64,000 nucleotides of DNA. Source: Okamejei kenojei (Eukaryota). The translations under genes were made by a program, and so were the position numbers. The notes beneath the pieces were generated by a model that saw only the letters and a list, made by a program, of their open reading frames with translations, made no database searches and was not told where the DNA came from. The stretch lies in NCBI GenBank assembly GCA_035221665.1, contig CM069141.1, positions 27,590,001-27,654,000 on the forward strand. Reading direction: 5' to 3'. Of the stretch, positions 2,796 through 54,892 are shown one piece after another (position 1 is the first letter of the stretch; each line of letters opens with the position of its first letter).

Positions 2796-3138
2796 TCTAT
2801 AGAGGTATATAAAATTATGAGAGGCGTTAATAGGGTAGCCAATCAGAACCTTTTTTTCCAGGGTGGAAATGTCAAAGACCAGAGGATATAGCTTGAAGCT
2901 CAGAGGGAGATTGTTTAAATGTCGCCTATCTCCTTCGCTCCTTAGATGCTGCTGCACCCGCTGAGTTTCTCCAGCTTTTTGTGTAACCCTTGTTTAAAGG
3001 AGATGTGGGTGGCAAGCCTTTTTTTCACAGAGAGTGATGGTTGCCTGGAACGTGTTGCCAGGGAGCCGAGAGTTGTATTTAAGAGGCTTTTAGATAGGCA
3101 CATGAAATATGCAATGCATAGAGGGGTATGGATCACAT
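2796..3138 (+). mobile_element. CR1 LINE 3' fragment, with a Penelope-type repeat fragment nested at ~2921-2988
   Basis: gaggtatataaaattatgagagg...agagtgatggttgcctggaac...gaggggtatgga matches the end of CR1 ORF2 and the 3' UTR. Confidence 0.75.
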
Positions 3139-3608: not shown

Positions 3609-3925
3609 ACTGGCAAAGGAGAATAGTTTAACCTGGCATTACATTCAGCACAAATGTTGTGGATCAAATGTTGTAGATTCTTGTCTATGTAAAATATTTA
3701 CACTATTTTTACCTATGATGTGCAACAATGTTGTACCTTGCAAAGATTTCGGCCTGGTTTACAGCATTAAGCTCTGACCTAATCAAGTTTGCGACTTCTC
3801 AAAATGCCACAAGATTTTCTGTTTAAAAATATCATTGATTCAAACTGGCGCAAGGAGAAAAAATATTTTAATGAAAATGTGACTGATTCAGGACTTTGCC
3901 TCTTTATTCAATTCATCCACACTTA

Positions 3926-4673: not shown

Positions 4674-5679
4674 TTAGAACCCACTTTTGCCAGACGATAT
4701 AAATTGGTCTTGATTCTCAATGATTATTTATAATATGACTGCAAAAGAGAATTATGATTAATAACTCACATTACTAATCATATTAAATATCAAAGGGCAA
4801 AATTACAATGGCAATTTCATTGATAGGCATTTTTGTATTAGATATTGTCTTTAGCTCAAGATCATTAGAGACAGACCTCAGGTACCCTGCTAATTTGAAA
4901 GCATTATCCTTATCCAATATCCATCTGAATGCTCACACCACACAGGAATTATAATTGATGGGTATTGTGACCTTAGATGATTTGTCATGTTTTCCCTTGA
5001 CTTTACAGATTGGTTGTTCTTAAATTAATGCTCTCAAATGTTCTGATTATAAGAAGCCTGTAAGGTCATTCCATTGTGCTGCCGTTGCCTTGGAAAATTG
5101 TGTAGTTTAAATCCTATCTATTGCCATCATCCACATTAATTTCTGAAAATCCATTGTCTCAAAGAATTGCAATTATGTAAGCAATGTTTATTCATCTGTT
5201 TTTCTTTGATTCATTAAATACCAATTCAAAACATCTTTGTTCTGTATCTGCACTGAATACTACAACAATAATATTATTTGATGCATAAGAAACAGTGTGA
5301 GCATGCATTATGTGTGCAGGTAGATACAGAAATGCCTTAAGAGGCATACATGGCTTCATACTGTGGAAGGAAAACTAACAGATATACACCCGGAGCAAAG
5401 GTTGCTGTTCATCAAGAACATGCATTTGTTACAATTCAAAGCAAAATAAAATATATTCTACTATCTTAACAATTTGACTAAATTTTGCTTATTGCTAGCT
5501 TCCTTTTCTCAATTATATTGTGCAATTTTACAGAAAAATAAATGCCTCAAAGACATTCTATAAAAAAATATAATTTCCATCAAAGCAAGTGAAAATACTT
5601 AACTCAGGCAGCTGATTTTGTAATCTCTTACATTAGGATACATTTTTAGCAGTGCACGAGAATTGTTGATTTCCATTAT

Positions 5680-6025: not shown

Positions 6026-6404
6026 CCTTTTATTTAGTCCTATTCTTTTACATTTCGTTCCAACCTCTTTCTCACAGCCATCAACTTCCAGTTGTCCTGC
6101 CACCCACTTACACGGGAGTCAATTTACAGTGTAGAAAGGAACTGCAGATACTGGTTTAAACCAAAGATAGACACAAAATACTGCAGTAATTCAGTGGGAC
6201 AGGCAGCACGTGGGGGGTGTCAGGGGTGAGACTGGAGAACCTGAAGGCAACATTATATGGTCAGGTGGCGAACATGGAAACTTCACACTGGCAACACTGA
6301 GTTCAGGATTAAATCCCAGTCTTTGGAACTGTGAAGCGGCATCACTAATTTAATGTTCCAATGTCTCCAGTTTTAACACTTGTAGTTACAAAGCACTGGG
6401 GTGT

Positions 6405-6690: not shown

Positions 6691-6918
6691 CCACTGCATT
6701 CTGAAGAGATTATCTTGTGTGGACAATTAATGTAGGTGTGATTTTTTTAAATTCTCAAAGTGCTATTGTGATTGTAATAGGACAAAGATAATAATGAACA
6801 TTGACATCAGTCAACAATTGATATTTTGGGATGATTTATAGCCCTTGTTGACTCTATCCATCATTAGACATGAGAAATTGGGGATCAAATTAAAGGTACA
6901 AATAACTGAACCACATAT

Positions 6919-7056
6919 AAGTAGGAAGGCACTGCAGATGCTGGTTTAAACCTTTACAGTCTGAAGAAGGGTCTCGACCTGAAACGTTACCCATTCTTTC
7001 TCTCCAGAGATGCTGCATGCCCTGCAGTTACTCCAGCTTTTTGTCTCTAACTTTGG
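6919..7056 (+). mobile_element. Penelope-type short repeat with hammerhead core
   Basis: ctgaaga-agggtctcgacct-gaaacgtt at 6961-6988. Flanking direct repeat accacatat (6910-6918, 7057-7065). Confidence 0.75.
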
Positions 7057-7423
7057 ACCACATATGTGCCTTTTATATTTTAAACTGTGGAATTTAGCCC
7101 AAGGCTGTCACTCATAAAAGTCAGATGGGAACTAATTAACGTACCAAATTTATGTTCCATGCATTGCGAGGCTTCAGGGCGAAGCCCAATCCATACAGGA
7201 GGTAAAGAGCCATGCTGCCAGAGCAGTTTGTGCAGACCCAGCATTGTAGATGTGTCCCGTCAGATACATGATATCTCTTGGTGAATAAACTCTGACATTC
7301 CCTGGTATTCCGATTGAATCATTGGAGCTTTATCTTAAAGTTAACAGAGAGTGAAGTGAGTCGTTGGGTCAGATACTGTGTGATTTACAGCAGCAGGTCC
7401 ATGACCAGCTTCTAAAAATAATT

Positions 7424-7610
7424 CACGTTCATACGTTCTAGGAGCAGAATGAGGCCATTCGGCCCATCAAGTCTACTCCACCATTCAATCATGGCTGATC
7501 TATTTTTCCCTCTCAACGCCATTCTGCTGCCTTCACTCCATAACCCTTGACACCCTTACTAATCAAGAATGTGTAAACATCCTCTACACTTTCACTCTAT
7601 TCTGGCTGTT
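7424..7610 (-). mobile_element. CR1 3' UTR fragment
   Basis: ggagcagaatgaggccattcggcccatcaagtctactcc...ccccttgacacccttactaatcaag is the reverse complement of the CR1 3' end seen at 33.8-34.2 kb. Confidence 0.8.
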
Positions 7611-8154
7611 CCAATCTAAGCCCTCATCACTTCAAGCCTTCCTTTCCAATGGAATTGTTTGCTTATCATGTGTAACAACAAGTGAGTTTTGTATGCAGTG
7701 AACAGACCTGTGCTTACGTATTGATTTTTTAGGAGATCTGGTGCAGGAGAACAGCAAGGGCTGAAGGTTGTTCATCCTGCAAAAGATCAAAAGGCTGAAC
7801 CACAAAAGAAAATGTCCACTGTTAAAATGAGAAAACACAAATAGCACATAAGTAATACTTTAATTGTGATAGTGATGCAGCTTGCAGAGATGCGGGAGCT
7901 GAAATGTATAATAAATGTATCAAAATAAATCAAAGAAGTAATCAGCAGATGATCTTGAGTGAATTTCAACTGTCTGAAATGCACTTGATAAAACGACTTG
8001 AAAAAATAAAATACTAGGTTTCATTGGTAAAGAGGGTGAAAACGTACAAATAGTTATGGAAAAAAAAAGCTTCACAGAGATGAAAGTCAACACCAAGCAG
8101 TAAATAAAGTGGGAGGATGCAATTGAAGCTCACGGTCTTGTTGTCAATTAGTAA

Positions 8155-8619
8155 AGGGCCTGTCCCACCAGCATGCAACTCCATGCAATGAGCGCGACCT
8201 AACGTGGTCACTTGAGCCGTCCGGCGTCGCGGGGCCGGTCCCATTTCAATCGCCGAAGCCGTGCGGAATTGTGCGGAGTTCGTCCCGACATCACGCGGGG
8301 CTCCGTAAAACTGACCATGTTCAAAAATTACGCGCGGCAACGGTTTGTCGGCTTGCAGTCGCCTCGACGCATTACACACCGCCTCGACGTCATGCCTCCA
8401 TGAACCTCTCTGTAGGTGCCTCCGTGACCCTCTCTATGTGTGGCTCCATGGCCCTCTCTGTGTGTCCCTCTCTGTCCTGGCGAACTTACCTTTCAGACTT
8501 CGCTCCAAGTTCGCCTCACTTTGCGCCGCGTTGTGCCACTCACCCGACCTCCGCGCGGCCCCCGCTGTCGGTTTGGTCGCGCTCACCGCATGGAGTCGGA
8601 TGCTGGTAGGACAGGCCCT
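8155..8619. mobile_element. Non-autonomous PIF/Harbinger DNA transposon (MITE)
   Basis: ~33-bp TIRs agggcctgtcccaccagcatgcaactccatgc / gcatggagtcggatgctggtaggacaggccct. Flanks are TAA and TTA (TWA target). GC/CpG-rich interior with ccctctctgtgt repeats at ~8400-8475. Confidence 0.85.
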
Positions 8620-10367
8620 TTAGAATCGTACAGCACAGATGCATGTTCTTTTGGATTCTGAAGGAGTGGGCGACATCGCCCATTTTTCTCCTGACTTCCT
8701 ATTTCTTATCCATCATACAAACCTTTCAATCCTTTTCAATCTAAGGCTTTGATGACTTACTGAGCTGATTCATTTAATTTAACACCATTTCTATTCATAC
8801 CTGCTTTAGATAATTCTCATTCTCTTTTGCTTTTGCATGCCCCTTGTCCTCTTTATATTAGACTCTTTATGTTAGACTCCTTGCCCTCTTTATATTAGAC
8901 TAGTTGGTAGGAGGCCGCCCCATTGGAGCTCGGTTGTTAAATTTGGCAAAATCTTCACATTCTTAAACTAGCTCGATTTTCAGCAGATTTTAACTTCATC
9001 CACACCCTTCCCACAGGAATATTTATTCATGCAGCATGGGTGATTGCTGTAAGTAATAGAGTCATGCAATACAACAAATGTGCTCATAGTTGATGGTACA
9101 CGTACTGATCCAGGCACAGTGTTACATTATTGAGAATGAGCAAAGAATTCTGTTGTTCATTTTAGCTAGGCAAACCTCTGTTTATTCAGTAATATTTCAC
9201 ACCAATTATACTTATCAATTTCACAATGAACCATGATTTTTTTTTTAAATTCCTACTATCTCTTTGAAAGTGTTCTGATATCAAAATTGTTGGCTATCGA
9301 AAATTGACAATGATAAATCCCTGTTGATGTTGATTTGAGGGCAGTACTTGGAATTATTCTGGGAGATTCAGGTTGGCAGGTGGCAGTGGGGAGTACAATG
9401 GATGTAGGTGGTGGGAAATGCCGTTCGGCAAAATAATCATGAGTAACAACGAGTGAGTTTTGGATGCAGTGAACAGAGTTGCTGTATATGACTCCAGAAT
9501 TTCAATGGCACGTGTAATAACCACATGCCAGACCGGAATAGGCTTCAATATACTCAACAATATGTCTCTGAAACTCCCTTACAAGGCAATGCAATGGCAA
9601 AGTCAGTATGGGTGGGAACTTCCTATGCAATGTACTGGCTTCCATTTTACAGGGCTTTCTATGCCACCTCTACCTGCCTCTGCTCACATGCCTATTCATA
9701 CAGACATTTCAGAGTTTCTATTTAAGATAAGCAGGATGCTGATTTCTATTCAGGATGACGTGATTAATGGTGCATTGTTATCAAGGCTTATGCTTAATTC
9801 TATCTTGCATTAGTCTCTTGAGTCATCAAATAAATGAAAAGATATACCACTGCAACAGAGGTTAAGATTTGTAGCTTCCTTGCTAAATGCATTTAATATC
9901 AGACAGGGTGTTATGATTAGGTGATGAGACAGGGTTTGAGTTAAAGAGGATTTGAAGAAGGTGGCAAAGAGAAAGAGAAGTGACAACAGATCTCTACACT
10001 CTTCAATGAACTCAGACTTTCAACTCTGCCATCTCCAACACTGGCCATCTCCTGCCAAAATACCAGTGGTAGCCTCTCCAGCAGATGTGTGGGTTAAAAG
10101 TGCAAGAGGACTATTGGCTGTCACTCTGGTTGCTGGGAAGCATATTTTATGACAAGATAGTACCATAGAAGTATCTCTTCTGGGGAAATGTTTTCAAGTT
10201 GCCTCAGTTTATGCTAGATTACCACAGTGCATTTATTAGTAAGAAACAAGAGCAAATTTGTTGAAGCGGGGACTTCCAGCTTTTCATTGTGTAAATGCAA
10301 GCAGAAGAGGCAGAGATAATAATTATTTATCTACAAATTGAGCTTGTTTATGTGTATCTGAACAGAC

Positions 10368-10622
10368 CATAAGACTATAAGACCTCAGTAGGAGCAGAAT
10401 CAAGTCATTTGGCCCATCAAGGCTGCTCAGCCATTCGATCATGGTTGATCTATGTTTCCCCCTTTCTCCTTCCTTCTTCCCATAACCTTACTGCCCTTAC
10501 TAATCAAGAACCTATCAATCTCCGCTTTAAAAATAAGCGGAGATTGATAGGCTCTTGATTAATAGAGGCTGTGCCACTATTCCACTACTAGAAACATCCT
10601 CTTCACATTCACTCTATCCAGA
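10368..10622 (-). mobile_element. CR1 3' UTR fragment with internal fold-back inversion
   Basis: ggagcagaatcaagtcatttggcccatc... matches the CR1 3' end. Inverted duplication at 10501-10561. Confidence 0.75.
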
Positions 10623-11776
10623 CCTCAGAAACAGAAACATCAGGAAAAATGACAAGGATATTTATCTTTCTTGCAGTGTTGGCAAGGTCATTACATCTCT
10701 TACTGCACAGGAATCAGGTAAATGTACTTGATTTAGAGACCATGCCATGTCTGTTTATCGGGTATCTTATAAACATCTCCAAGAAGAACAATGCATTCCT
10801 CTTCCCCACAGAGCAAAACTAGACTTGTGGAAATGTTTACATATGAATAGGATACCCATTGGGATCCATAACTACATGAGAATTCACATGGGTTTTCAGT
10901 GTTGAATGACAAAGAACAACAATAATATTCCTATTTCTTCCACCTCAGGTAAAGATTCAGTGATTATTAGGCAATATTCTGAATCAGTTGCAAAAATTTT
11001 ATCATGTGATCCATAGATCTATGCTGCTACACCAATAGATGGCAACATTGTACTATGTAATCTTTATGCTATGGATTATTGGTGACATTTTAACTGTAGA
11101 ATCCTAATTTTCAATGATAATTTGGTGTGGTCAAAAAGTCAAATTCTTTCCAAAATATTAACAAATTGTCCTAAACAACTTGATTGACAAAATACACCAT
11201 TGTTCTTTACACCTTCTTTGATGCTTCTCAAATTCCTTAGATTCCTCTGAAGACCCGAAAAGTCACCCATACCTTCTATCCAGAGATGCTGCCTGCCCGC
11301 TGAGTTACTCCAGCATTTTGTGTCTATCTTCCTCAGATTACATTCTGCTATCTTAGATTAGAATTGTAAGATCGTTGCAACAATCTATTTTAATCTATAT
11401 AATTTAGACATTGTATTGCTCTGCTAGTTATTGTAATTTCTCACCAGATAATTCTGCACCTTCAACTAAATTATTCTCAATGTACATTTTTTATAGTTTC
11501 AAAATTTTGTTCTTTGCCAAAATCCACAATAGTAAGTATTTCTAAACAATATTACCCTTTTTTTCTGCACAAAGCAGATATTAATTCATTATATGCTAAA
11601 TCCCATACTAAATGTACTGGGTAGAATTATTTTCTGCTGTGGTTCATTGTTTTATACTGAATGACCAGAATAAGCCTTAATATCTTTGAATTTCATACTT
11701 ATGTTTCGAAAGTAAATTAACAGGTACTCTAAACTCCATGGCCCATCAAAGCTTTGTTCACAAGTAATATTTGGCT

Positions 11777-11914
11777 AGTGTAAGAAGGAACTGCAGATGC
11801 TGGTTTAAACTGAAGATAGACAGAAAAAGCAGGAGTAACTCAGCGGGACAGTCAGCAGCAGAAAGGGTGACTGTTTGGATCGAGACCCTTCTTCAGACTC
11901 GGTAGAATCTAATC
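11777..11914 (-). mobile_element. Penelope-type short repeat with degenerate hammerhead
   Basis: gaaggaactgcagatgctgg...gagacccttcttcagact. 12-bp direct repeat taatatttggct (11765-11776, 11915-11926). Confidence 0.75.
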
Positions 11915-12095
11915 TAATATTTGGCTCAGCGAAATTTAATGTCCCAAAGAAATAAGTGAGGAATTCACCTCAATCATAGATGCATACCACATAGAAACAG
12001 ACCATTCGGCCTGCCATGACCATTTTCACCATTGTACTTATCTGCACTAGCCCCATCCAGCTACATTTAGTCTCTAATCTTTTTCTGCCTTGACA

Positions 12096-39200: not shown

Positions 39201-40764
39201 TCAAAAATCAATCTGTTTTGTATTTTGCAGGCTGACCCAATGCTTTGTAGATAGCATCGTGGATATGAATTTCTCGATGGCCATCTTTCCATTCTTGCTC
39301 AAAGTGAGGGATCTCTTCCCATCACAGTCTACCATCAAAAACTGACTTGGCTTCAGTGCTTTAGAATGCAGTGCCTTGCCTTCTGGAGTTTATTGAAGAA
39401 AGACACCGGCTGCTACTGTAGAGCATCCCTCCACCAGAAGAACAGCACTGCTTGTCACAATCTGAAAGCGAATATCTTTGATATCTTTGTAAATAGATCC
39501 TTCCAGGTGACATAATGTGGACTTTGTTCTAGGGTTTGGCGCCCTTTTTACTTCTACAACAGGAGGCCTGGTCAACGCATATCTTTCCCAATGATACCAG
39601 CCAACGAAACAGCGAGCTTACCAATTCTGCAGGGTGATCATTATCACAAGAACCATCAGCTTACATTTGGCAGTCAAAGCACCATATGACAAAGAATAAC
39701 AAGTGATTTCATTGCTACTAATGTGCAGCTAGCAAGCAATACCACTCACTTTATCTTGCATGTCAGTGTCAATGATTCAGAAGACCACCAAGGCACTTCC
39801 CTTATATGGCATCTCAGCCCTCAAGGTGAATTGAAGGGAATATTATAATGCAATAAATCATTCTGTACCATTGTTGAAATCCACGATTTTTGACCACTTA
39901 GCCCAGAAGGGGAGATGATTGTAGTTTAGCTGGGCTACGGCCATTTCTGGGGAGTCTCAGGACTAATAGACAAAGCATCTTTGTAACCATTCGATAGTAA
40001 GAGAAAATGGAACTGCTGGAATAAACAACTAGTACATAAATTAAACTTCTTTAAAAACAATGGGATTCACATTGATAATGGCATTTGAGTACAGAAAAGG
40101 GGGTCCCAACACATTCAACAATTCCCAGTGATATTCATCTAGGAATGTTTGCTTTTTACATGGCTCAGCATGGCCCAGCTAAATAGATCATAATGGCAAC
40201 AGAATTCAGGACAAAATGTCAGACAGTTGATATATTTAGCCTCCCATTTAGTGACGCAGACTACTTTGTTATTTTCCATGGTGAGATGCGTTATAGAAGA
40301 GTTTAATTGGCACTCTACTTAAATTTGCAAAATGAATCAGTTAATTGAATTTCAATTGGCCTTTTACACCAGCGTGCTCATCAGTCCGCCTTTCAGAACA
40401 CTGAAAAAAGTTATCATGAAGTTCACAATATTCCGCTCACATAGCAATATGTGAACAGTGTTACACCGATCCACACAGTCAGATGTAGCTTACAATTGTA
40501 AAGTCCTGACCATAAACAATGCAGGGTTTCTCCAGAGAGATGACTGATGTTGACTGAAAAATACTGCCCTCAATGGTGTCATGTAGCATTCAATGTTCAT
40601 TCTTATCCACAAGTGTATCCAGGTTGCCTGGAAAGATGCAACCAAGGTCATAATAGTCATGAACCATTTTCATGAACCGAGTCTAAATAATGATGCCAAA
40701 AGGGATACTATTTTACTTTGATCCCCAGAGTGCAGCTGAACAAACCACAAACCACATTCTCATC

Positions 40765-41006
40765 TTTCGCAGCCAACAATGGATCATTATGGGCTCTACC
40801 CTTTCTTGGTCATCTGTTGCCGGCCATGTTTTATTTTCAGGCCTTTTCTTACCCCCAGCTCCCTCCCTCTATTTTTACAGAAGAAGGGTCCCGACCCGAA
40901 ACGTAACCCATCTTTTTTCTCCAGAGATGCTGCCTGACCAGCTGAGTTACTCCAGCACTTTGTGACCGTCTTCAGTATGAAACAACATCTGCAATTCATT
41001 TCTACA
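40765..41006 (+). mobile_element. Penelope-type 3' fragment with degenerate hammerhead
   Basis: cagaagaagggtcccgacccgaaacgta followed by the shared ccagagatgctgcc...ctgcaattc end. Confidence 0.7.
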
Positions 41007-44000
41007 TCCTAAATCACATTAGCAATTGGATTCAGGGTGAAAGTTAATTTGTTATATATTTAGTGTGCCAATTGGACATGAATGATTTTCAGATGTTCCA
41101 TACTTACATGATGGAATCTCAAACTTAGTAGCCGAGTTTGTCCAGCCAGCTCCACTCCAGCACTAAATCTCACAGTCATAAGAATATTAAGAAATAGGAG
41201 CAGGAATAGGCAATTTGACCTTCAAACCTGTTTTGCCAATTGTTAAATCCACGGCTGATGTACATTCTGAGTGCTATATCCTTTGATTTCCTCATGATCG
41301 CTATTTGCAGTAGTCTATTGTAGCCTTCCTCCACTCAACAACATTTTGCCTGCCAAAGTGGATAACCTCACATTTCCCTCCGTTATATTTCATCTTCCAA
41401 ATCTGCCCACTCACACCTCCTTCATATCTTCCTCACAACTAGTTTTACCACTATCAAGATTTACATGGCTGAAATTGGTTAGTTTTTATTTTTTTTTAAT
41501 CATTTACATGGAAAGGAAACCTGCACAACATGATACATTTAAGTCAGGACCACTAAATGCAAGGGAACATTTTAAAATAGCGCCCAATGTATTTTGGCAC
41601 ATAGCCCTGCAAATACAGCATTTCTTTTGCCTACAGCACTTTGCTAATGTTTTCTCTCTCCCCTAATTATTGAATTCCCAACTATTATTACACCAATGTT
41701 CTCTGCTTTCTCCTCCTTTCTCCTGCTGTTCTTCCATAACTCTTTATCTTGCATCTGACAGGTGGCAAGTATACTGTAACTTTTGAATAGGCCATTTTAT
41801 GTGGATTCTCATTCTCTATGCTATTTGCGTTCCCCCTTTACCTCTACTCTATTCGTCAAATCATCTCCATTCTAATGCTTGCACCCTAGTAAGCTCTGCA
41901 ACTGACATTTCAGATAATCATCTGCCCCATTATGATCTTATGAAAATTCTAAACAAGAGTGATTTGAGGAGGCAACATCTATTGATGATATGCTTGCTTG
42001 GAGCTATAACAATTCACAGAATCTCAAATACTGTGTCATTCATAATTTTTACTGTTATATATTTGTTTCCATTATTTTTATTTTATCTCTTGCAACTTAG
42101 TCAATTTTAAGAACATGCTAATTCGCACCAAGCACTAAAACAATGGAAAAAAATCACTATGCAGAAATTATACTGTTGCAACAATTAGAGACCAAAAAAC
42201 CGTATCCCACTGACCCTGACTTCTATGTTAGATATTCTATTTTGGAAATATGCATGAGAGCACTCTCTATTTGCAGTTGCATAAATCATATTATCAAGTT
42301 GAGCATCATTCCTTGTATTCTTTTACGGTCTAGCCAATTTAATATTTATTTAGTCTCTTTCCCTTGCATGTCAGTTGTTTCACTTTGAAATTGAGTTGTT
42401 TCACTTTGTTGTTGTACGGCCTTTTATGAAATTTGAGATTTAATTCAATGCACATTTGAAGAGCAAACCTGCAGGCAAGACAACACATAACCAGTTGTCC
42501 AACATTTCATCAATGAATTAGCTAATTATGTTATGCATGCAAATTATAGAGGGAATCACTTTATATAATCGGAAGGGCAAAATTATTTCAAAGTAATTTG
42601 CATCATGTTCTTTGTTTTGGTTTCTTTATGGCTTAGGAGTTTATTCTCCAGCGATTAAATGTATTTTTCTTGAATTTTGACTGAACTTTCAATCCATTCC
42701 CCCAGGAAAAACTTTTACATTTGAATCTAAAGGTATAAAATAAACCTCTTTTCTTACACCCTCCTGAGAAGCTTTAAATGGCACGGTTTTGTTTCACTGA
42801 CATGCAGCATCACACAGCAGCCTCATAAGGGTTTTCCAGTGGGAATAACCAGTCTATCAGTGATCAATCGTACAATAGAGAAGTGCTATATACAAAGGAA
42901 ATTCTAGATTATTGCAACAATACATAGGAACATAGTTTTGAAATGCTGCTCTTTTACATTTAATGTTCCTGACTTAAATTTATCATGTGTTACAGGTTTC
43001 CTATATCTGTAAATGATTAACATTTTTTTTAAGTTAGCAATTTTAGCCATTGCACTTGGTAGGTAAGGTACTGAGTACAATTCTTTCCCAAACCCAAACA
43101 GTTCTTAATTCATTTTGTAGAAGCATTGAATGAAGCTGTCATTTGTCCAATCTTGAGTACTTTATTCATCCTATTTTTAATTGTTTTTTAGCAGGAATAT
43201 ACCTTTCAGTTTACCCTCTAAAATATAACTTATTTAGTTGACATTGCTATGCAATACAGTCAATTACTAAATTATTCTTGCTTGCATACCATGTTATCTA
43301 AATATACTAATCATTTAAAATGATATCATTTTCTGTCAAATAAATTAGGCATCCACTTTTTATCTAAGTCAGTTAGCATAAATCCCAACTAATTGTAATA
43401 TCTGTACTCTTAGAAAGGACAATTAGTACATCAGTTTGACAGTAATGGACAGCACATTATTCTCACAACTGATTCAAATTAATTCCATGTTTGAATTTGT
43501 GCAAGAAATAGTTGGAAGGTTATATTTTAATCACTTTAAAGTGTTTGGTAACTATGTAGGCCAATTAACCAATTAACATGAGACGGAAGCAGCACAAAAT
43601 TAATGATATGGATGCCTGTTATTTGAAAGTCCTTGACATGCAAAAGGATTTGTGGAAATTGGTATTCCAGGTTCTCTAAAGTTGTCATGTTATAGATTAA
43701 TGCTAAACTAAATTTACAGGGTTCACTATTCGATTAAAGTGGAAGAAATATATTTTTAATTGCTGCCATCACATTTGTAAAGAAGTAATGGGCACCCACT
43801 ATACTTCACTCACTATATTCAGTAACATTACATCAAAGGATCTTATAATGAAATAATAAAAATGGCAGATGATGCACTGGGATCTGCTTCAAGCTATTAG
43901 CCAATGCTGGAGTTCTGCTACAATGACTCTCCCAAATTGAACACATTGCACCTACAATTGCTTCTTGCTATTTAACATATGAAATTACTTCTCAAGAAAT

Positions 44001-44385
44001 GTTTCAGGCTTGTTTTCACAATGTGCTAATAATTTTGGTAAGCAATATTATGATAAGGTTAGCAACAAATCCTCTCAAAAATGGATGCGTGCATCAAAGC
44101 CTAACTTTAATTCAGGCAAATATGGCTAACTCTTTCATTGTCGGGGTGTAAAGCAGCTGTTAAATTACATTGCAGCCATTTTCACCCATACCAACATTTT
44201 CCATCTGTGGATTGAGTATCACCCAATTGATTGCACATTCCAGTCAATATTTTCTTTGGAGTTCCATGGACATCAAAGTGGCCAAATAATGCACATACTT
44301 TGTGGAAGGATGGCTGACTATGTCCTGCATTCTGCAAAACAGGTATAGTTGCAGAAAGTACATAACTCACTCTACTTAAATACAT

Positions 44386-44719
44386 AAAGCTGGAGTAACT
44401 CAGCGGGACAGGCAGCATCTCTGGAGAGAAGGAATGGGTGATGTTTCAGGTTGAGACCCTTCTTCAGACTAGTCAGGGAAAACGGAAACGAGAGATATAG
44501 ACGAAGACGTAGAGAGATAAGGAACAAAGAATGAAAGATATGCAAAATAGTAACAAATGTAAAGGAAACAGGCCATTGTTAGCTGACTCAACTGAAGAAG
44601 GGTCTCGACCTGAAACATCACCCATTCCTTCTCTCCAGAGATGCTGCCTGTCCCGTTGAGTTACTTCAGCTGTTGGTGTCTATATTCGGTTAAACCAGCA
44701 TCTGCAGTTCCTTCCTACA
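44386..44719. mobile_element. Palindromic Penelope-type repeat with two opposed hammerhead-like cores
   Basis: ~90-bp inverted arms around a ~120-bp spacer shared with 20272-20353. Cores at ~44438-44470 (-) and ~44591-44620 (+). Direct repeat taaatacat flanks the element. Confidence 0.8.
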
Positions 44720-46052
44720 TAAATACATTGTTGTTTTTTCTTTTCTTTTATTATTTAGATTTATTATTCATTTCCTCTTGCACGGTAACTATCTCTTCCT
44801 TTTGAATCATGTTTTCCACATGGGCTTCTCTAAAATTCCTTCTCAAATGCAACGAACCAAAGAACCACCATATGGAAAAAAGACTGATTGCATATAATTT
44901 GGCAAAATGCCTCATTATTGAAACATCTGATATTTTTCAGTCTCGCCTTAGATAATTATAAAAGTAAGCTTGCTCCAAAGTATTTTGTTACGTCTGTTTG
45001 CTTTGTTTATGGCTTGTGATTTTTGAAACAATACCATTTATCCTCTTGTATCATTCCACCCAGAGGTTTCACAGTTACACTCTGCTCCCTGAAGTAAAGT
45101 TCTTAAATTTGAATCTCAGGCTATAGAATAAACAATTTTTCTTACCCCCTCCAAAGGGTCTTGAAATGGCACTGTTTTGTTTATTGAAGACTTTTGCTCA
45201 CAAAACTATTATTACCAACCACGTAGACTAGGCGACAAGCTAACAGGACATATATTCAAACTTTAGAAACTCGCATTATGTTTGAAAAGTTTCAATATAA
45301 CAATTTTCATATTATGCTGAATATCACTGAACATCTGCAACCCTTACTTCAAAGTGCAACTCTGTAATACTATTCTTATCAACATCATGTAATGCAAAAG
45401 TGATTTTTCATTGGAATTAATAGCAATAAGGAGTATTTCTTGGTTGTGTCACATCACCCTGGAAATTTTACTGTGCATTTCCATGCATGTCACCCTTGAG
45501 ACCCCAAGGAACAGCAACAGATGGTATTTTTCATATAGAAATTGGTGCCTGCTGAATTGAGATGACAGCGATCTCTCTAAAGAACTTCATTACAGTAATA
45601 GCAGTCAAACATTTAACTTCTGTCCAAATGTCATCGTTTTTTTTGGCAGTTCTCTTAAAAAACATCCCCTTCCTTCAAGATTGCAATGGGAGAAACACAT
45701 TATGTGATATATTCCACCATTTTCCACTGCAAATGTAATGAGTTATTGAGGATTTACTGAACACTATCAGCCCAGACTGATGAATTTCTGATCAGGATAC
45801 AAAGGGCTTGGGTAGATCCTGTGATATGTTCCTCTCTTGTCTGTCTAAATATAACAACCCTATTAATCCATAATTGAAGGAGCTTCAGGTTACTTCCTAT
45901 TAGACAAAGGGGTTGGGACTTCACCTGGCTGTGCCCTGATTGTGTGGCTCACTACCCATTGTAGAATCTTTGATGAAATCTGTAGCATTTCCTTTGGTTG
46001 CATTCAACTATAAGTAGACCATTCTCAAATCTGTCTATTCAGTTCTGATGAT

Positions 46053-46932
46053 AGATATCAAATGCTGGAATAACTCAAGGGACAGGCAGCATCTCTGGAA
46101 AGAAGGAATGGGTGACGGTTCGGGTGGAGACTGTTCTTCCGACCCGAAACGTTACCCATTCCTTCTCTCCAGAGATGCTGCCTGTCCTGTTGAGTTAAGG
46201 GCCTGTCCTACTTGGCTGCCTTTCTCGCGCCATTTATGCGACCAGCTAGCGTGTGGGTAGTGCGTGGGTAGCATGGGGACAGGTGCATGGAGTAGTATGG
46301 AGTGATGTGGAGGAGTGTGGAGTGGCTTGGAGGAATGTGGACTTTGTCCTGCCTGAAATCTTCGCGCGCCACCGGCCTGTCGCGTAACCGACAGCCAAAG
46401 TGGGACAGGCCCAAGACCCTGGTGCGATGCAACGTCTCACCTCCAACAGCAGAAGCAGGCAAATGATCGTCGAACTCAGCCTGGGGCTCACGGCCGTTGC
46501 GGATCCGGATCCGCCCCCACTCCTACTCCCAGAGCGGGGCCAAGACGATTGGAGATAGACACAAAATGCAGGAGTAACTCAGCGGGACCAGCAGCATCTC
46601 TGGAGAGAAGGAATGGGTGATGTTTTGGATCAAGACCCTTCTTTCAGACTGATGAAGGGTCTTGACCTGAAACATCATCCATTGCTTCTCTCCAGAGATG
46701 CTGCCGGTCCTGCTGAGTTACTCCTGCATTTTGTGTCTATCTTCAAATGACGTCATGCGCTCCAGATGGCTGTGCGGGCGCATGATGACGCGAGCGACTC
46801 TCACAGGACCGTTGCGCGACCATCACTACTGGCTTGTCGCGTAAGTGATGGCCCAAGTGGGACAGGCCCTTTACTCCAGCATTTTGTGTCCATCTTTGGT
46901 GTAAAGCAGCATCTGCAGTTTCTTCTTACACA
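46053..46932. mobile_element. Palindromic Penelope-type repeat split by a Harbinger insertion
   Basis: 17-bp TSD tattcagttctgatgat (46036-46052, 46933-46949). The arm gagtta|ctccagc is interrupted at its TTA. Confidence 0.8.
46198..46870. mobile_element. Non-autonomous PIF/Harbinger element containing a palindromic hammerhead repeat (~46551-46745)
   Basis: TIRs agggcctgtcctacttgg / ccaagtgggacaggccct. TTA TSD at 46195-46197 and 46871-46873. Extra internal TIR-like aagtgggacaggccc at ~46398-46412. Confidence 0.85.
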
Positions 46933-48409
46933 TATTCAGTTCTGATGATGTGAAATGGTAACTCATTCTTTATACCGATGTTGCCTGACCATGCATTTCC
47001 AGCATTTTCACGTTTTACTTCAGCTTTGAACATCAGCTACCTTTCTTTTGTAGGCATTCCATGGCACTGGAGTCTTTTAATGTTATTACTCAAGAAATTA
47101 GATTAAGTTCCAGTGTTCCTGTTGTGGCATTATCGTTTTGAGTTTGAAGCAAACTGTTTCATGAATCACATTTCACAATTGAAACAGTCTTCCAGCAGTG
47201 TTACCACTAGTGTGTTGACTGTGTGACATCTGTAAAGCTGAATTCAGGCTTATTACCACAAAGTGCCAATTCCTAAACTGACGCTTCTTTGCATCTGTAC
47301 CCAATCTCTCTTTGATATTTCATTCAAAATGTTTTTTGATGAAAACAAGTTGGAAAGGGTGAGACGTCTGCTGTTTTTACATTTTTATGTTACATTTCGT
47401 CCTAGCACCTTCTGCTGATACAAACCCTTTGCTTCCTCTTTGAGCCCTCCCCCCTCCTCCATTCCCCGGAAACTCAAAACAACATGAAGAATGCCATCAT
47501 CCATATGTCTCTGTCCCGCCTTCCTATGCTCCGTCGGAAAAATAAGCACTCAGGTTAAGTTTTGTATAAATATATTGATGAAGTTAATGTGAAAATGTCA
47601 AACGATCATGAAGGTCCAAATAATTGGTTACTAATGTAACATGTTAAAATATATCAGTATTCCTCTAATTCTATACAATCCATATCAAAATATTTATTTG
47701 ATCTAAAAAAATCAGTCATCACTCGATGCCACTACTTGCGTTCAAGAATAAGGGTGCTCCGTTCAATTATAATTAACTAGGTCAAGGCTTATTAGAAGTC
47801 TGGTGCGACAGGTTCAAAGATCCAAATGACAAATTTCTGTTCTTATGGGCTGACTGTTTTGATTTCCATTTCCACTCAAGAGCACATACTTAGCTCATTT
47901 GAACTGCACTGATCTATATTGGCTTATGTGTCATATTCCATATCACAATATATACTTTGGATCACATAATTGATTTTTTTAAATGGAGGCATATATCTTA
48001 GACTGTGGTTGTTCTGATTTTCATCAAATGTACCAAAGCTCCCTCAGCTGTAATTCTCAAAATAACAATGTTACTTTGTAACAATGGGCCGTTGATGCAA
48101 AGGGATTATGAAAGCTTCCCACCAATTCACACACAAACTGGACTTAAAACTATATATTTGTTTCTTCATCTCATCATTGAGTCTACACACTGGGGAGGTC
48201 CTTAACAGCAGTGTTGGAATATGTTCAGCACACAAACCCATAGTGCTATTATAAAAAACGGCTCACTTACATTCCTTCTAAGGTAAATATGGATGGACAA
48301 TTTGATGCTGGCCAGGTTAATAAAGCTCAGATCCCACAAATACATAAAGAACATTAAGTGGAACAATAGTTTCTTCCAAGTGGTAGCCTTAACTTCATGT
48401 AGTTCTCCC

Positions 48410-48640
48410 ATTTGTGGGTCAAAATGTCAGGAACCCCAGAGTTTGGAGCATTCCATCCAGGACCAGGCATGAGTACTGAGGGACTGCTGAATATCAGACA
48501 TACAGGTTTTCAGAAGAGAAAGTAAATCAATGCCACATCTACAGCCCTGTGCAATTAAAAGATCCCATGGTACTGTTATCAGAAAAGGATTAGAATTCTC
48601 CAGGTTTTACGGTCAATATTTAACCCTCAGTCATGTTCAC
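48410..48640 (+). mobile_element. Deu-domain SINE remnant (SacSINE1/AmnSINE1-like)
   Basis: gtactgagggactgctg...taaaagatcccatggtact...ggtcaatatttaaccctca match the DeuSINE central domain motifs. Confidence 0.7.
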
Positions 48641-48736
48641 TGTGGATTAAAATATTAATATACTTTCTTACTTAATTTTGATTGGAATTGAACTAGGTAA
48701 CGAAAGGGTGACAATTGGCATCTCTCGTTGACCAGT

Positions 48737-49313
48737 TGTAGAAGAGGTTTGTGGGAATCGGCAAAGTAAGATCAGACATATTACCTCTGGTGAAAGAATG
48801 TGTTGAAGGGTGGATGGTAAATGTAAACATGAAATAGTAGACGGAGATAAGGAAGCTTGTTTCTATCAGCAGTGTGTTACAGAAGACCACCCATGCCCCT
48901 ACCACTAGTAGCGTAGATACGTTGCAGAAAATAGGGGGCTTATGATTGGCTCGGAGGGGGGATGGTGATTCAGGCAGCCTAAAAGGTGAGATAAAATAAT
49001 GTCAAGACGCCCTTGTATTATCTTTGACTTGTATTAACCATCTGTTGTTGAATAAGATTGACATAAACAAAAAGTATGTTATGACTAATGAAATAATTGG
49101 TACCCTTGTAGTAGATACTATAGTTTTGTATAGTTGTATCTAAAAAAACAATTGTTTACTGCACAATATAACTGTAGGCTAATTGTGCTGTGAAGGCAGA
49201 GAACTGGTGAGCAGTTAACTGCTGCCAATTCTCCATGATCTTCATGCAATAAAGTCTCTTGAAGCAAACCTGCAAAATCTCCGCTTTTTATTTCACTTTA
49301 ATTTCCCTCTACA
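48737..49313 (+). mobile_element. Candidate solo LTR
   Basis: TGTAGA...TCTACA inverted termini, TATA-like aatataac (~49165) and AATAAA (~49249). No matching TSD. Confidence 0.5.
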
Positions 49314-49862
49314 TTAATTTCTTCCACATTCACTAACAATAATAATAAAGGGTCATTGATTCAGAACATTGATTCAGCTTTTCTTTCCACAGAATACTGT
49401 CCTAACCTGCTGAGACTTTACAGTACTTTAATTTTATTTAAGATTTGTGGCATCTGTGTTTTTACTGAATTTCAATGACTAAGGAGACATTGGACAAAGC
49501 ATTTAATTCTGTTGTGTGTCTTTTTTGCAATGATGTGACTGAACTGAAGTGTAACATTGAATCACTAAACACAACCAGCACTTCCAGCATTCCATTACAT
49601 AAAGGGATTGCGAACTCAGCCCTTCAATCATCAGCCTAAGCACCATGATAGTTTAGTTTATTATTGTCACATGTACCAAGGTACAGTGAAAAGCTATTTT
49701 GTAGTGAATTGAATACATGAAATTAATTACATCACTAAAGTCCAATTTAACTGTGCAGTCATTAAATCTGCTATCACAATCTACCTACTTGGTGATAGCT
49801 GGCATTGTTCCCAGTATGACAAGGGTACAAATGTGGTACATGCTTGTCATGCAGGGGCACTG

Positions 49863-50608
49863 CACGATTGGCAGCCCCGCCAACAGTCTGTTTGTTTTTT
49901 TGTCTTTATTTTTATTTTTAGTGTGTGTCAAAAGTGTGTGTAAATGTTCCCTGGTTTGTTTTATGTGCGGGGAGAGGGTGGAGGTCAGGGGAAACTTTTT
50001 TTTCCAGTTCTTACCTTGCCGGAGATGCGATTAATTTACGGATCGTGTCTCCAGTGGCTCTGTGGCCTACCATCGATGGAGCTGGAGGCATCCTCGGACT
50101 GACCTTGGGCCCCGCTGCGGGGTGTGGACCTAACATCGGAGTCTATCTCTTGCCTGGGATCGCCCCAACCGCAGCCTGCCGACTTTACATCGGGAGGTCG
50201 CAGTCTCGGGAGAGGCTACTCGGAAGCTCCAATGACGCAGAGGCTCGACCAGCCCCGACGCGGGGTTCGATCACCGGCAGGGGGCAGCAGACATACCCCG
50301 ATGCAAGAGCTGATCACCCCGATGTGGAGGGCCAAAATGCCACTAGCTACAGGAGTCAAGACCGTCCCGTCAACGGAAGGCTCGAGGACCCCGACCGCGG
50401 GAGAGCAAAGGGAAGAGATTGAACTTTTTGTTGCCTTCCATCACAGTGAGAAATGTGGCGGAGTCACTGTGGTGGATGTTTATGTTAAAATGTGTTATGT
50501 GTGTTCCGTTGCTTTTTATTGTATGACTGACTTGGCAAATTAAATTCCTCATATGTTGCAAAACATTCTTGGCTAATAAAGTATTATTGTGATTGTGACT
50601 GATTGTGA
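49863..50608 (+). mobile_element. GC-rich non-autonomous retroposon (LINE-dependent SINE-like)
   Basis: CpG-rich body, 3' hairpin catcacagtga...tcactgtggtg, aataaa and a (gattgt)n tail. Shares its 3' part with 60812-61504. Confidence 0.65.
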
Positions 50609-51496
50609 TATCCATCAAAATTGAACTCTATTTGCACCTAAAGTATTTAAGTAAAGAAAACATTATATAGAGCTAAATTTGATTGTCCATTAGGTTCTTA
50701 GCAAGTAAATATCTTCAACTTGGTTAATTGCAAAAGGAATACCAGTACCAAGAATCTTTAAAACTCTCAGATCATTCAGGGTTAACATAATTGTTCCTTC
50801 TCTGATTGTTGTTGCTATTGCTTTTGCTGCAACAAGGAACGTACAATTTATATACAAGTCATTTTCAATTTATGTCAACGATAATAACTCACTAAAAATC
50901 ATTAATGTAGAAATGTATTGATTTAACAACTTTGATGTAGTGTGCTTCATGGCATTGGTATAGCAAGCTCTTATAACCTGGAATATGACCTTTATTTTGT
51001 GTCAAAACAGTCAATAATGTGTTGATATCTTCAGCCTACCCCAATATTTACGAGGGTTGTTCAGTATGTCCATAATTTTATCAATAAAACTGTACCTTTT
51101 CTGAGACTTATTTTTAAACAACAGTGTTAAATCTATGAATAATTTCATTAGAACTTCAGGCAATAAACGAGTTCGGTATTCCGAAAAACGCAAGGAGTCA
51201 TGGGATTTGTCAAAGGTTATTTGTGATAAAGAAAACACGAACAAAGCGCTGGCTGCATAAACTGTGTATAAAATGTTAACTATTCTACCAATTAATTAAT
51301 CTAGAATTCTCTCAACTCAATACTTGACAGGCGTCGCTCTTTCATGAATATTAATTCAATCTTATTTCTATCTCATTTCACAACCCAACTTCTGGAATAC
51401 CGCATTACCTCTCCCGGCAGCATTGGAGGACATTCTCTCTCTCTCTCGAGTTTAATTGATATTTGATAGGGTAATCGATATCCCAGTAATTACCAT

Positions 51497-51668
51497 GTAG
51501 GAAGGAACTGCAGATGCTGGTTTACACTGAAGGTAGACACAACGTGCTGAAGTAACTCGGCGGGACAGGCAGCATCTTTGGAGAAAGGGAATAGGTGATA
51601 TTTCGGGTCGAGACCCTTCTCCAGAGATGTTGCCTGACCCACTGAGTTTCTGCAGCATTTTGCGTGTA
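51497..51668. mobile_element. Palindromic Penelope-type repeat
   Basis: gtaggaaggaactgcagatgctgg...tttcgggtcgagacccttct, followed by a partial second arm. Confidence 0.75.
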
Positions 51669-51829
51669 TTCCCGTTGATGACTGGTGCTCGGCATTCACC
51701 GGCACCAAGGGGGTTAACCGACAGCCACTGGATAAGGCAAGAGGTGCAGCTGACGCTCCCTGGCCCGTCGGGGAACAGGTTTCTCATGAGTTGGAGCAGA
51801 GTTGAGCTGGAGTTAACGCTTCTTCTCCG

Positions 51830-52370
51830 CGCTGGCTGTAAGCCTGGGGCCACCACTCCTCTTATACCTGCTTTAGTAACTTCCCCACCACGTACTGAGT
51901 GAAAAAAGTTGAACATCAGGTTCTTATTAAATCTTTCCCCTCACACCTAAGCCCCTTGGTTCTTTTTGGTCCCAGAATTTGGTCCAAACAACTTTTCTTC
52001 CACCGTTCAATCCCATCTGTTCCTGTGTCCACCCTCCCTGTGTCCTCCGATGACTTACCTTTACCTAGTTAGGTTAATTTGGTTTAGGGACACAGCACGG
52101 AAGCAGGCCCTTGGTTATGGTTTGTAGCCTAAGGCCTTTCTCTTCCTGTGAATAGTCCCCACCATCTTGCATGTCATCACCTCCACCCAAACTCCGATAT
52201 TAATGCTGAGAAATTGTCCCTCTCACGCACGTTTGTCACATGCAGTTTGTGCACATTAGATTGTCACTGCTGAGAACCTGACTACGGATGAAACGCAGGT
52301 GTGTATACACGCAGCAGCTCAGCTGCCGAGAATGCTTATCTCGAGTGACCTATGACCTGGGCATGCGCAG
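51830..52370 (-). promoter_or_regulatory. Candidate promoter/enhancer: TATA, DR1 nuclear-receptor element, NRF1-like site
   Basis: Minus-strand GTATAAGAGG (~51858-51867) upstream of a CpG-rich segment. TGACCT-A-TGACCT at 52346-52358, gggcatgcgca at 52359-52369. Confidence 0.4.
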
Positions 52371-53947
52371 TTGAAATACCGAACTCGCTCATCTTGCTCA
52401 TCTTCCTCCACATTATTGAGATCTTAAGTTTTGTTGTCCGATGGTGGGCAAAAACAAAGTTCATAACAACTATCCACTAATAAGGAAGTGCAGACAAGGA
52501 GATCATATCAGGTCCTCTCTTGGTTGCTCACGTGTAATGGATTCCCATACAGTTTTAATGGCAGAAACTTCCTCAAACCTTCTCTCTAAACTTTGCACCC
52601 AATGCTTTCTTGTTTATTTCCCTCCAATTCAATAGAACCTACATTGAAGCAGGAAAATATGAAATTACATTATTGTGCTAAACTTTGAGAGTAGATAACA
52701 TTTGGATATATAAACCAATTAATGATGTACAACAAATGAAATCATATAGTTATTTTGGAGAAAGATAGCCTTGTATGTTTAGCTCAACTATGGCTCTTGA
52801 CTAGCACTCAAATAATAAATGTATGATATTATGTGCGTAATATGTGTAAAGTAATGTTAAAGCAGTCCTGCTGAGCTACATTCAATACAAATAAATCAAC
52901 TGAAAAAGTTTTCCAGATCGGCTATAGTTTGCAATCCAACATCTTTTATATTTATTTGGCTGGTGTACTGCAGTGCCAATAAAATTATATAATCAGCAGC
53001 TAATTAAATTGTTTTGTTAAATAGGGCATTAGTCCACCCTGTGTCCATCAACCTGCTAATACTTGGCTAAAGATAACGGAAATTTTACAGACATTTTGTT
53101 TATAAATCTGAGGGGAATTAACTAATTATTCAATTTACACGCATAATATTTTCTAATTCATTGTTCTTCGGACATAGAAATCAAGGTGATAAAAAGAGCT
53201 ACAGGGAACAAGTGTCTGTGACAGTGGTTTAGGGAATGGATACAATCTGGGTGTAGAGTGAAATAATGTTCCTGTCCCCCTCTCCATCTGCTTCTCTAAG
53301 ACACTTTCAAAAATATATCTGCATCTTTGAACAACCTTTCCTTTATCTGTCCAAAAATATCCAAACATGATTCCTTTACATTTTGTTTGGTGATACTTCT
53401 GGATAACAGTTTGGGTCCTGATATTAGTCACATTTTATAAATGGAAAATGTTACTGCTGAACTGTACAGAAAATTAATGTTACGGTATGAATCCCTGGTC
53501 GGCGTTGTTTCCCATTAGAAAAGGTGGTGATCACTATTCCAATAAAATTGCCAAAACATGGCTTTATCAGAGCAGGAATGGACTTAGTTGTGGTATCACA
53601 CTTTAAAAATCAATACAATATCATGGAATAATCACTCGAACCTCAAGATTGTTAGTAACTCAAGCAACAAATTCAGCATGAACTTCTGCCCTCCAATCAG
53701 AAGAGCAGATAATTGAAAGACAGAATCAGGTAATTGTTTTTCTAATTATGTTCTATTTCTGTGGATATAGAAAGTACTGTCAGTTATTATTCTGACAGGC
53801 AAACATGAAAAATCAACACCAAATAAACACTTGCGGTGATAAGTAGCCATTAAAAAACGTGTCACATTTTAAAAGACTTTGATATGTGTGGTAAAACATT
53901 TTTTTTTAACAAAAGAAATGCTGTCAATCCATGAACAATTTATTTTA

Positions 53948-54116
53948 AAGGTAGACATAAACTACTGGAGTAACTCAACATTTCAGTAACTGAAGAAGGG
54001 TCTCGACCCGAAATGTTACCCATTCCTTCTCTCCAGAGATGCTGACTGTCCTGCTGAGTTACTCCAGCATTTTGTGTCTACTTTCGATTTAAACCAGCAT
54101 CTGCAGCTCTTTCCCA
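53948..54116 (+). mobile_element. Penelope-type repeat with hammerhead core
   Basis: ctgaagaagggtctcgacccgaaatgtt. 14-bp TSD aacaatttatttta (53934-53947, 54117-54130). Confidence 0.8.
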
Positions 54117-54892
54117 AACAATTTATTTTACGTGGAAGCCAGGTTTCAGTTTCCTAAGCGCTTTCTAAATAATTTGGCCTTAATAAATGTAATGTGAAAT
54201 GTTAACATTTACAATCATTTTAGTTTTTGTTTAATGCAACTCTCGGATCGGTTGACATTTTTTTTAGTGTGGTTTTTGTTTAAAGAAATGTTATAAGCAA
54301 CAGTTTGTGTTGCTTATAAACATGTATTTCCAAACTTTAGAGCCCTGGTTTACTTTGGAAATATAAAGATTTCAATATTGTTGAAGAATAAGACTGAATA
54401 TTCATACCTCTCGGGCTTTGACATTTAAGAGATTTACAATCATTGTCACAAAGGAAAGTGGTATTTTTACAAGTGTTAGGTGACTGAAAACTGACTTAAT
54501 TCTGGAGCAAAATACAATAATAACCATTTCTGTGTCATGGGATATCACCGTTGAAATTTGACCAGCTCTTTCTGGTGTGACTCACGTTTGTAATCCTATA
54601 TCCATTAACACTGGTCCAAGCTTCCCCACCACAATTCATGGTTAGTGATCTATCACTCTCAGTTAGCCTTTGATATGCTGACCACGCACCATCATGTGAA
54701 AAACCACATTGCCCCATCCCTGGCTACAGCAAGTCCCAATTGATCCTATCTCTGCAAATCCCTTGATACTGGCCTACTGGCCTCCAAAAGAATTGTCAGG
54801 GAAACCATTTTAGGTTCAGAAATTGCTGTGCCATTTGCACCTGATGCCTGCAAGCTAAGTTTTCAGTGTAGTGCTCACATAGAAGAGTGTTG

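Follow-up and report, generated by a model that had tools for sequence, protein, structure and literature searches.

Short hammerhead-bearing repeats in a 64-kb window of the Okamejei kenojei genome are probably truncated ends of a Penelope-like element

We have characterized a dispersed family of short repeats carrying a hammerhead ribozyme (HHR) motif in a 64,000-bp stretch of the Okamejei kenojei genome (GenBank assembly GCA_035221665.1, contig CM069141.1, positions 27,590,001 to 27,654,000; hereafter, the window). Judged by their sequence architecture, these repeats are probably decayed, 5'-truncated and often inverted pseudo-long terminal repeat (pLTR) ends of an endonuclease-containing Penelope-like element (PLE), inserted by target-primed reverse transcription. 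About 5% of the window would then consist of PLE debris that resembles miniature inverted-repeat transposable elements (MITEs), which matters for repeat annotation in such genomes. The element type itself has been known since 2014, as described in PMC4209133. These short insertions would preserve in their ends a record of the PLE reaction in vivo, namely two reverse transcriptase (RT) start sites (one for each target strand), copying of uncleaved RNA, and a cluster of 5' ends at the margin of the ribozyme. How inverted pLTRs arise and what the PLE hammerhead does are posed as open questions in PMC8557442. The positions at which copies start and end offer a testable clue to the copying mechanism.

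The repeat family and its insertion ends

A profile built from 10 copies within the window and run with nhmmer (cut-off E<=0.01) returned 34 matches over the whole window, representing 33 arms in 23 loci and covering 3,133 bp (4.9%), and 0 matches in the reversed window used as a control. The family is a real dispersed repeat. A first-pass annotation of this DNA had called it the most abundant short repeat, which is borne out by these counts and by a self-BLAST of the window, in which a single short family dominates. That annotation had also described about 20 copies of 140-350 bp; the dispersed family stands, but the architecture is variable and insert sizes run from ~70 to 400 bp without a fixed unit, reaching 880 bp at one locus (46053..46932) because a MITE is nested inside. 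Ten of the 23 loci are head-to-head arm pairs and 13 are lone arms. Read from 5' to 3', the parts of an arm are an upstream region rich in pyrimidines, the minimal type-I hammerhead, a conserved stretch of ~65 nt and, in some arms, a tail of ~35 nt. Several subfamilies (A, B, C, E and F) could be told apart, single copies being compared for A, B, C and F. A 25-nt family motif scanned against GTDB genomes gave 0 matches, in line with a vertebrate repeat.

Arm ends were analyzed in 28 arms with coordinates placed by eye from alignments; five old, divergent lone arms were dropped because their ends could not be assigned. In the model numbering used here, the CUGANGA core occupies 11-17, an extra A 18, helix II 19-22/27-30, GAAA 31-34 and the ACGU palindrome 34-37, with cleavage predicted after 38. 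Target-site duplications (TSDs) of 9-17 bp were found at 11/23 loci. At seven of these the TSD (10-17 bp) scored >=10, a level reached by 0/397 random and 0/254 swapped-flank controls; the other four (9-12 bp) scored 8-9, as did 10/397 and 3/254 of the controls. The TSDs are 75% AT (103/138), compared with 60% for the window. The 3' ends are bimodal and ~35 nt apart, half of them lying at model 95-106 (14/28; short ends) and half at 134-139 (14/28; tailed ends), and several have 3-5 nt in common with the start of the TSD (by eye). All 10 two-arm loci are head-to-head with their 3' ends facing outward onto the TSDs. One tail is present in 9/10 of them, none in one and two in none (p about 0.01), and all 10 internal junctions are different. 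In locus 6919-7053, the left arm comprises nothing but the tail and the rest lies in the right arm, a pattern expected from twin priming on one RNA.

A MITE of a DNA transposon bearing a hammerhead-like motif by chance would look much like part of this family, as 10/23 loci resemble inverted repeats and one folds as a near-perfect hairpin (the read-through transcript of 46549-46746 folds as one hairpin, -168 kcal/mol). This explanation is refuted by the variable TSD length together with single-arm insertions bounded by TSDs (4 of the 13 lone-arm loci). The arms are moreover unequal, the HHR match lies far beyond chance, and the true MITEs of the window have symmetric terminal inverted repeats (TIRs) and 3-bp TTA/TAA flanks. 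We give it next to no credence. The first-pass annotation had taken the copies to be PLE-related and retroposed rather than MITEs, and the AT-rich TSDs, unequal arms and one-sided tail support it.

The annotation had further described the copies as retrozyme-like and ribozyme-processed, and neither description is supported. Twenty of the 28 arms extend 5' across the predicted cleavage site, seven end short of it and one may begin there; the termination rate at the site (1/125) equals background. The RNA that was copied was therefore either uncleaved or cleaved and rejoined, and nothing else favors the second option. A true non-LTR retrozyme, whose tandem units would be hammerhead-cut, circularized and reinserted, shares a type-I HHR with the family, and its religated circle would likewise cross the cleavage site. 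Long TSDs are reported for metazoan retrozymes in PMC7229834, and one survey lists a chondrichthyan genome with retrozymes (bioRxiv 10.64898/2026.07.22.740005). However, none of the 34 matches is a head-to-tail copy, the window holds no tandem array of the unit, at most 1/28 arms starts at the cleavage site, and the HHR is of the minimal PLE type and not the canonical retrozyme type. We consider a retrozyme origin highly improbable.

Insertion of PLE ends could proceed as follows. A PLE protein with RT and GIY-YIG domains would nick both target strands with a stagger of 9-17 nt, and each nick would prime cDNA synthesis at either of two internal start sites, giving the short or the tailed end, on RNA left uncleaved by the hammerhead. 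Joining of two short cDNAs 5' to 5' would yield the MITE-like product. The loci are as follows, with strands given relative to the window.

2920..2989, plus: lone arm, subfamily B, 5'-truncated within the HHR, short 3' end; 9-bp TSD at 2911-2919 / 2990-2998.
6127..6210, minus: lone arm with tail, truncated 3' of the HHR; TSD not above background.
6919..7053, both: head-to-head; left arm (minus, 6919-6952) tail only; right arm (plus) with descriptor-positive HHR at 6961-6988 and short end, overlap with left arm minimal; 12-bp TSD, 1 mismatch.
11244..11328, plus: lone arm from the HHR 5' edge, internal helix II deletion, short end; 11-bp TSD, 1 mismatch.
11777..11914, minus: lone arm with tail, G12>A in the HHR; exact 12-bp TSD.
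12884..12941, minus: old divergent arm, subfamily E; ends cannot be assigned.
14070..14469, plus: longest lone arm, subfamily C, ~270 nt of pyrimidine-rich upstream sequence (start approximate), decayed HHR at 14338 (plus), tail.
15328..15520, both: head-to-head; tail on left arm only, which is the sole arm that may start at the cleavage site; exact 10-bp TSD.
20178..20353, minus: lone arm, subfamily B, ~80 nt of upstream region, short end; HHR at 20241-20268 (minus) with the minimal motif fully intact, predicted scissile bond between 20241 and 20240; exact 13-bp TSD.
22888..22972, minus: old divergent arm, subfamily E.
23744..23812, minus: short lone arm, subfamily C, with tail, without HHR.
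25562..25663, plus: old divergent arm, subfamily E.
25698..25828, both: head-to-head; both arms truncated 3' of the HHR and so without it; tail on left only.
26855..27071, both: head-to-head, subfamily C; HHR at 26941 decayed; tail confined to the right arm; 12-bp TSD, 1 mismatch.
29041..29113, minus: old divergent arm, subfamily E.
31497..31585, minus: old divergent arm adjoining a long interspersed nuclear element (LINE) RT fragment; weakest match of the profile.
36033..36228, both: head-to-head; decayed HHR at 36098-36125 (minus); tail on right only; exact 14-bp TSD.
40760..41007, plus: lone arm, subfamily F, with upstream region (start approximate) and tail; HHR 5' edge deleted at ~40877.
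44386..44714, both: head-to-head; left arm (minus) with HHR at 44440-44467, ~115 nt of upstream region and short end; right arm (plus) with HHR at 44592-44619 and tail; 14-bp TSD, 1 mismatch.
46053..46932, both: head-to-head; left arm short, right arm tailed and interrupted at 46197/46871 by a nested true MITE; exact 17-bp TSD.
46550..46746, both: near-perfect palindrome inside the MITE of 46053..46932, both arms short, junction centre at the HHR 5' edge; core CUGAUGA at 46649, ACAU replacing ACGU; TSD not found.
51492..51670, both: head-to-head; tail on left only.
53948..54116, both: head-to-head; left arm short, right arm (plus) with HHR at 53990-54017 (C15.2>U) and tail; exact 14-bp TSD.

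The hammerhead motif and the 5' hot spot at its edge

The majority consensus satisfies a strict minimal-HHR descriptor (CUGANGA core, G10.1-C11.1 closing helix II, GAAA...UH), which matched once in 38.3 Mb when applied to 300 dinucleotide shuffles. The consensus is a predicted minimal type-I hammerhead of the PLE kind, in agreement with the first-pass annotation. Helix I is very short, as had been noted there, and measures 2 bp; helix II has 4 bp and a 4-nt loop, not the 5 bp and 2-nt loop first read. In the family alignment, 64% of helix I cells and 93% of helix II cells are paired. All six cores named in that annotation were located, at 6961-6988(+), 20241-20268(-), 44440-44467(-), 44592-44619(+), 46649-46676(+) and 53990-54017(+), and the degenerate cores at ~11875, ~14338, ~36100 and ~40878 belong to the family; the one at ~31560 belongs to it too, as an old arm with a weak score (E=0.0015) that adjoins a LINE fragment.

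Most genomic copies have decayed. The strict descriptor is passed by 2/15 core-spanning arms, 6961(+) and 20268(-), and G12 is mutated in 4/13 arms. The ACGU palindrome, present in the consensus, survives in 4/15 core-spanning arms, and departures from it are mostly CpG decay. The GAAAC-GUH motif with ACGU that had been ascribed to many copies thus holds for the consensus, but among the six named cores only those at 6961 and 20268 have it literally; ACAU takes the place of ACGU in three and AUGU in one. CpG decay has affected 58/108 sites, so the insertions are old. Paired cores lie on opposite strands, making a cis dimer impossible within a locus. PLE hammerhead dimers are attributed to Lunse 2017 in the review PMC6765202. 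The hammerhead would be inherited pLTR cargo that is maintained in source lineages and needs dimerization or a protein partner to work, nearly all genomic copies being dead.

Comparison of one copy each of subfamilies A, B, C and F showed 37-60% identity over the 74 nt upstream of the motif (85% between A and B), 79-87% in the motif and 66-83% over the next 60 nt downstream. Conservation therefore starts at the ribozyme 5' edge, though it extends beyond the ribozyme. In subfamily B (20229-20260, minus), A>G changes at model 27 and 39 each lie opposite U, such that helix II and helix I stay paired, and model 39-42 repeats 27-30, providing an alternative partner for the 5' strand of helix II. 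All subfamilies have a second pyrimidine tract with AG, then ATG, after the cleavage site at model 47-59 (e.g. 44628-44640, plus). This tract could be a splice acceptor. A coding role for the ATG, 21 nt past the cleavage site, was rejected, because in subfamilies A and C its frame closes no more than 16 codons on.

Arm 5' ends are concentrated just upstream of the core, where 11/28 arms start within model -7 to 15; 13 arms end at scattered points downstream of this hot spot and 4 retain 75-270 nt of the upstream region. Termination occurs at 0.046 per base in the hot spot and at 0.007 on both sides (p=1e-6, or 9e-6 with the palindrome counted once), a p-value that is optimistic because the interval was picked after the data were seen. 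These starts are delimited by the partner arm or by the TSD, not by homology running out. Five of the hot-spot arms are tailed and six untailed; the effect therefore tracks position and not length. Read by eye, at least 4 database peptides start alike, directly after the partner arm, although the query had the same starting point.

Three origins for the hot spot may be considered. Copies read CTAGTCT, CCAGTCT or TCAGTCT 2-3 nt upstream of the core, matching YYANWYY, which we take to be the initiator consensus and which has a background of 1.3% per base; the hot spot may be the 5' end of an RNA starting on this initiator-like heptamer. PLE promoters are placed in the pLTR in PMC2377424. The pyrimidine tract and AG may, by analogy with D. 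virilis, act as a splice acceptor. Finally, RT dissociation or fold-back at the TCAG/CTGA quasi-palindrome may be responsible, which fits 46550 well and other loci poorly.

We tentatively suggest, as one possibility, that the short arms are complete run-off cDNAs of a transcript starting 2-3 nt upstream of the hammerhead core, a start that would explain the 2-bp helix I. An internally initiating PLE RT could take the copy of the two start sites that lies close to the 5' terminus of the PLE mRNA, which would give run-off products of about 95 or 130 nt; a dimeric ribonucleoprotein would prime both nicked strands, with one start site each, and the products would be fused head-to-head. If so, MITE mimics would be turned out by PLEs in large numbers, the inverted upstream pLTR typical of these elements would have a simple origin, and the hammerhead would be a switch at a capped 5' end and not a tool releasing the transposition template. 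We did not encounter this model in the open-access papers searched. Less likely than the main reading is a dedicated short non-autonomous PLE derivative, in which a 100-135 nt RNA made by solo pLTRs from the hammerhead 5' edge would be mobilized in trans, a form of the first-pass proposal that does without ribozyme processing. The hot-spot starts of tailed and untailed arms alike and the lack of an ORF-bearing copy in 64 kb agree with such a derivative, and pLTR-related non-autonomous elements are described in bioRxiv 10.64898/2026.07.22.740005 and PMC8557442. The long upstream sequences of four arms, the 13 scattered stops past the hot spot and the ten differing internal junctions argue against it, and the hot spot is equally expected if the autonomous mRNA starts there.

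The assignment of the family to pLTR ends of a PLE has to be weighed against several results. Twelve of the 23 loci have no TSD above background, and in 3/9 two-arm loci tested at least one arm lies outside its partner's five nearest neighbors. Helix covariation was not above shuffles (145/500). Scans with Rfam at E<=10 found no hammerhead family, either across the window or within 20170-20360, a silence that would be expected for motifs lacking helix III. Core mismatches at non-CpG positions were fewer than in the downstream flank (13 arms; 7/130 and 80/702, Fisher p=0.04), but a base-matched permutation gave a marginal p=0.067; the refuting case named in the first-pass annotation, a core no better conserved than its flanks, did not arise, though by a modest margin. 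The cross-subfamily identities provide better, if modest, evidence that the ribozyme sequence was conserved. No PLE RT or GIY-YIG domain was detected by Pfam in the 303 ORFs of >=58 aa that were scanned (from 737 stop-to-stop open reading frames (ORFs) of >=40 aa in the window), and a search of the window with PLE motifs found none. Eleven database peptides that read through the repeat, retrieved with a 43-aa arm translation as query, have no Pfam match; these come from other contigs and were set aside as spurious. With no partner protein found in the window, the PLE assignment rests on nucleotide architecture, and the enzyme is presumed. Every copy in the window is truncated short of the expected ORF position, and no partial tandem with direct pLTRs around an ORF occurs there.

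Other structural analyses were as follows. RNAalifold applied to nine long arms returned only a hairpin of 4 bp without meaningful covariation, and gave no sign that any structure is conserved where RT starts. The 20178-20353 copy as a monomer showed no hammerhead fold (z=+0.93), with helix pair probabilities near 0. Weak Rfam matches to miRNA families were rejected as repeat hairpins. An initial core-versus-flank test on all arms (p=0.001) was set aside, being biased by alignment edges and base composition.

Setting of the family in the window

The window is repeat-rich animal DNA of ~40% GC, with an assembly gap of 161 N at 23326-23486. Its complement of SINEs and LINEs is like that of cartilaginous fishes, for example skates or rays. 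A MITE family with ~14-bp TIRs, 3-bp TTA/TAA flanks and differing interiors, which we take to be PIF/Harbinger-like, is present at 3922-4677, 8152-8622 and 46197-46870. The last copy and two hammerhead loci are nested in three layers, the MITE splitting 46053-46932 and hosting 46550-46746. An empty-site comparison of the 46550 palindrome with the MITE at 8152 was uninformative, the MITE interiors being unrelated.

LINE RT fragments occur at 31474-32112 and 57483-60260. The latter (plus) is a long, broken LINE, presumably of Rex1/L2 type, with endonuclease-like, RT and ALKBH8_N-matching segments. Further LINE fragments at 31580-32810 (plus) and 3222-3638 (minus) appear to us to be CR1-like; the former opens with a 27-bp triplication (31584-31665) flush against the old hammerhead arm, and the CUGA of the ~31560 core may therefore derive partly from the LINE. 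A fold-back of a LINE-like 3' fragment at 10497-10567 forms a 70-bp near-perfect hairpin and was the top spurious Rfam miRNA match. A broken Gypsy-type pol remnant (1-2040, plus) retains RVT_1, RNase H and integrase matches in several frames with stops. Copies of a tRNA-like short interspersed nuclear element of ~280 bp lie at 2468-2747, 23835-24111 and 27911-28203 and resemble elasmobranch V-SINE/HE1 elements. Another dispersed repeat has a common 125-bp end at 50402-50526 and 61308-61432.

Comparison with known PLEs and retrozymes

Metazoan non-LTR retrozymes resemble the family in being non-coding and pLTR-related, with a type-I HHR and long TSDs, according to PMC7229834 and bioRxiv 10.64898/2026.07.22.740005. 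These sources describe retrozymes as head-to-tail tandem units (150-450 bp, expressed as circles), whereas the window holds lone arms and head-to-head pairs, with ends that do not coincide with the cleavage site.

The HHR variant of D. virilis Penelope shares the 2-bp helix I (PMC4209133; PMC2377424), and the D. virilis intron ends directly 5' of the core, where the window family has its pyrimidine tract and AG. That variant differs in its 6-bp helix II and in possessing a helix III, albeit a small one; in the window family neither a splice donor nor a spliced copy was observed.

Endonuclease-containing PLEs (Penelope/Poseidon, Neptune) are closer. Their pLTRs carry minimal type-I HHRs in which helix II is preceded by one additional base and has a G10.1-C11.1 pair, and in which ACGU is palindromic, and PMC4209133 reports thousands of mostly solo, decayed motifs in fish and amphibian genomes, with dual motifs 100-700 bp apart on opposite strands assigned to truncated PLEs. 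PLE insertions are described as 5'-truncated, often preceded at the 5' end by a truncated copy in inverse orientation, with a tail of 30-40 bp that is often confined to one end (PMC8557442), and rotifer PLEs as having inverted pLTRs, 8-10 bp TSDs and palindromic junctions (PMC3846280); the one-sided tail and variable TSDs recur here. Penelope elements are also reported in the whale shark genome (PMC8455134). Unlike these elements, the window has no ORF-bearing or head-to-tail partial-tandem copy, and both arms are usually <140 nt, such that the whole insertion resembles a MITE. The helices of S. mansoni (helix II of 7-8 bp, helix I of 4-5 bp; PMC4209133) are longer than the 4 and 2 bp of the window family.

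The PLE of Anolis, Poseidon_Ac (PAc), provides the nearest biochemical counterpart. The PAc ORF starts in HHR stem II, a start that is not established for the window family, and PAc initiates reverse transcription in vitro without target homology, whereas several 3' junctions here share nucleotides with the TSD. In the in vitro work of PMC11167929, the PAc hammerhead cleaves only with protein and unprocessed RNA is the main substrate; the protein nicks AT-rich DNA on both strands and extends each of them, and two internal RT start sites downstream of the HHR define the tail. The AT-rich targets, priming of both strands, use of uncleaved RNA and paired start sites suggested by the insertions in the window agree with the corresponding features of PAc.

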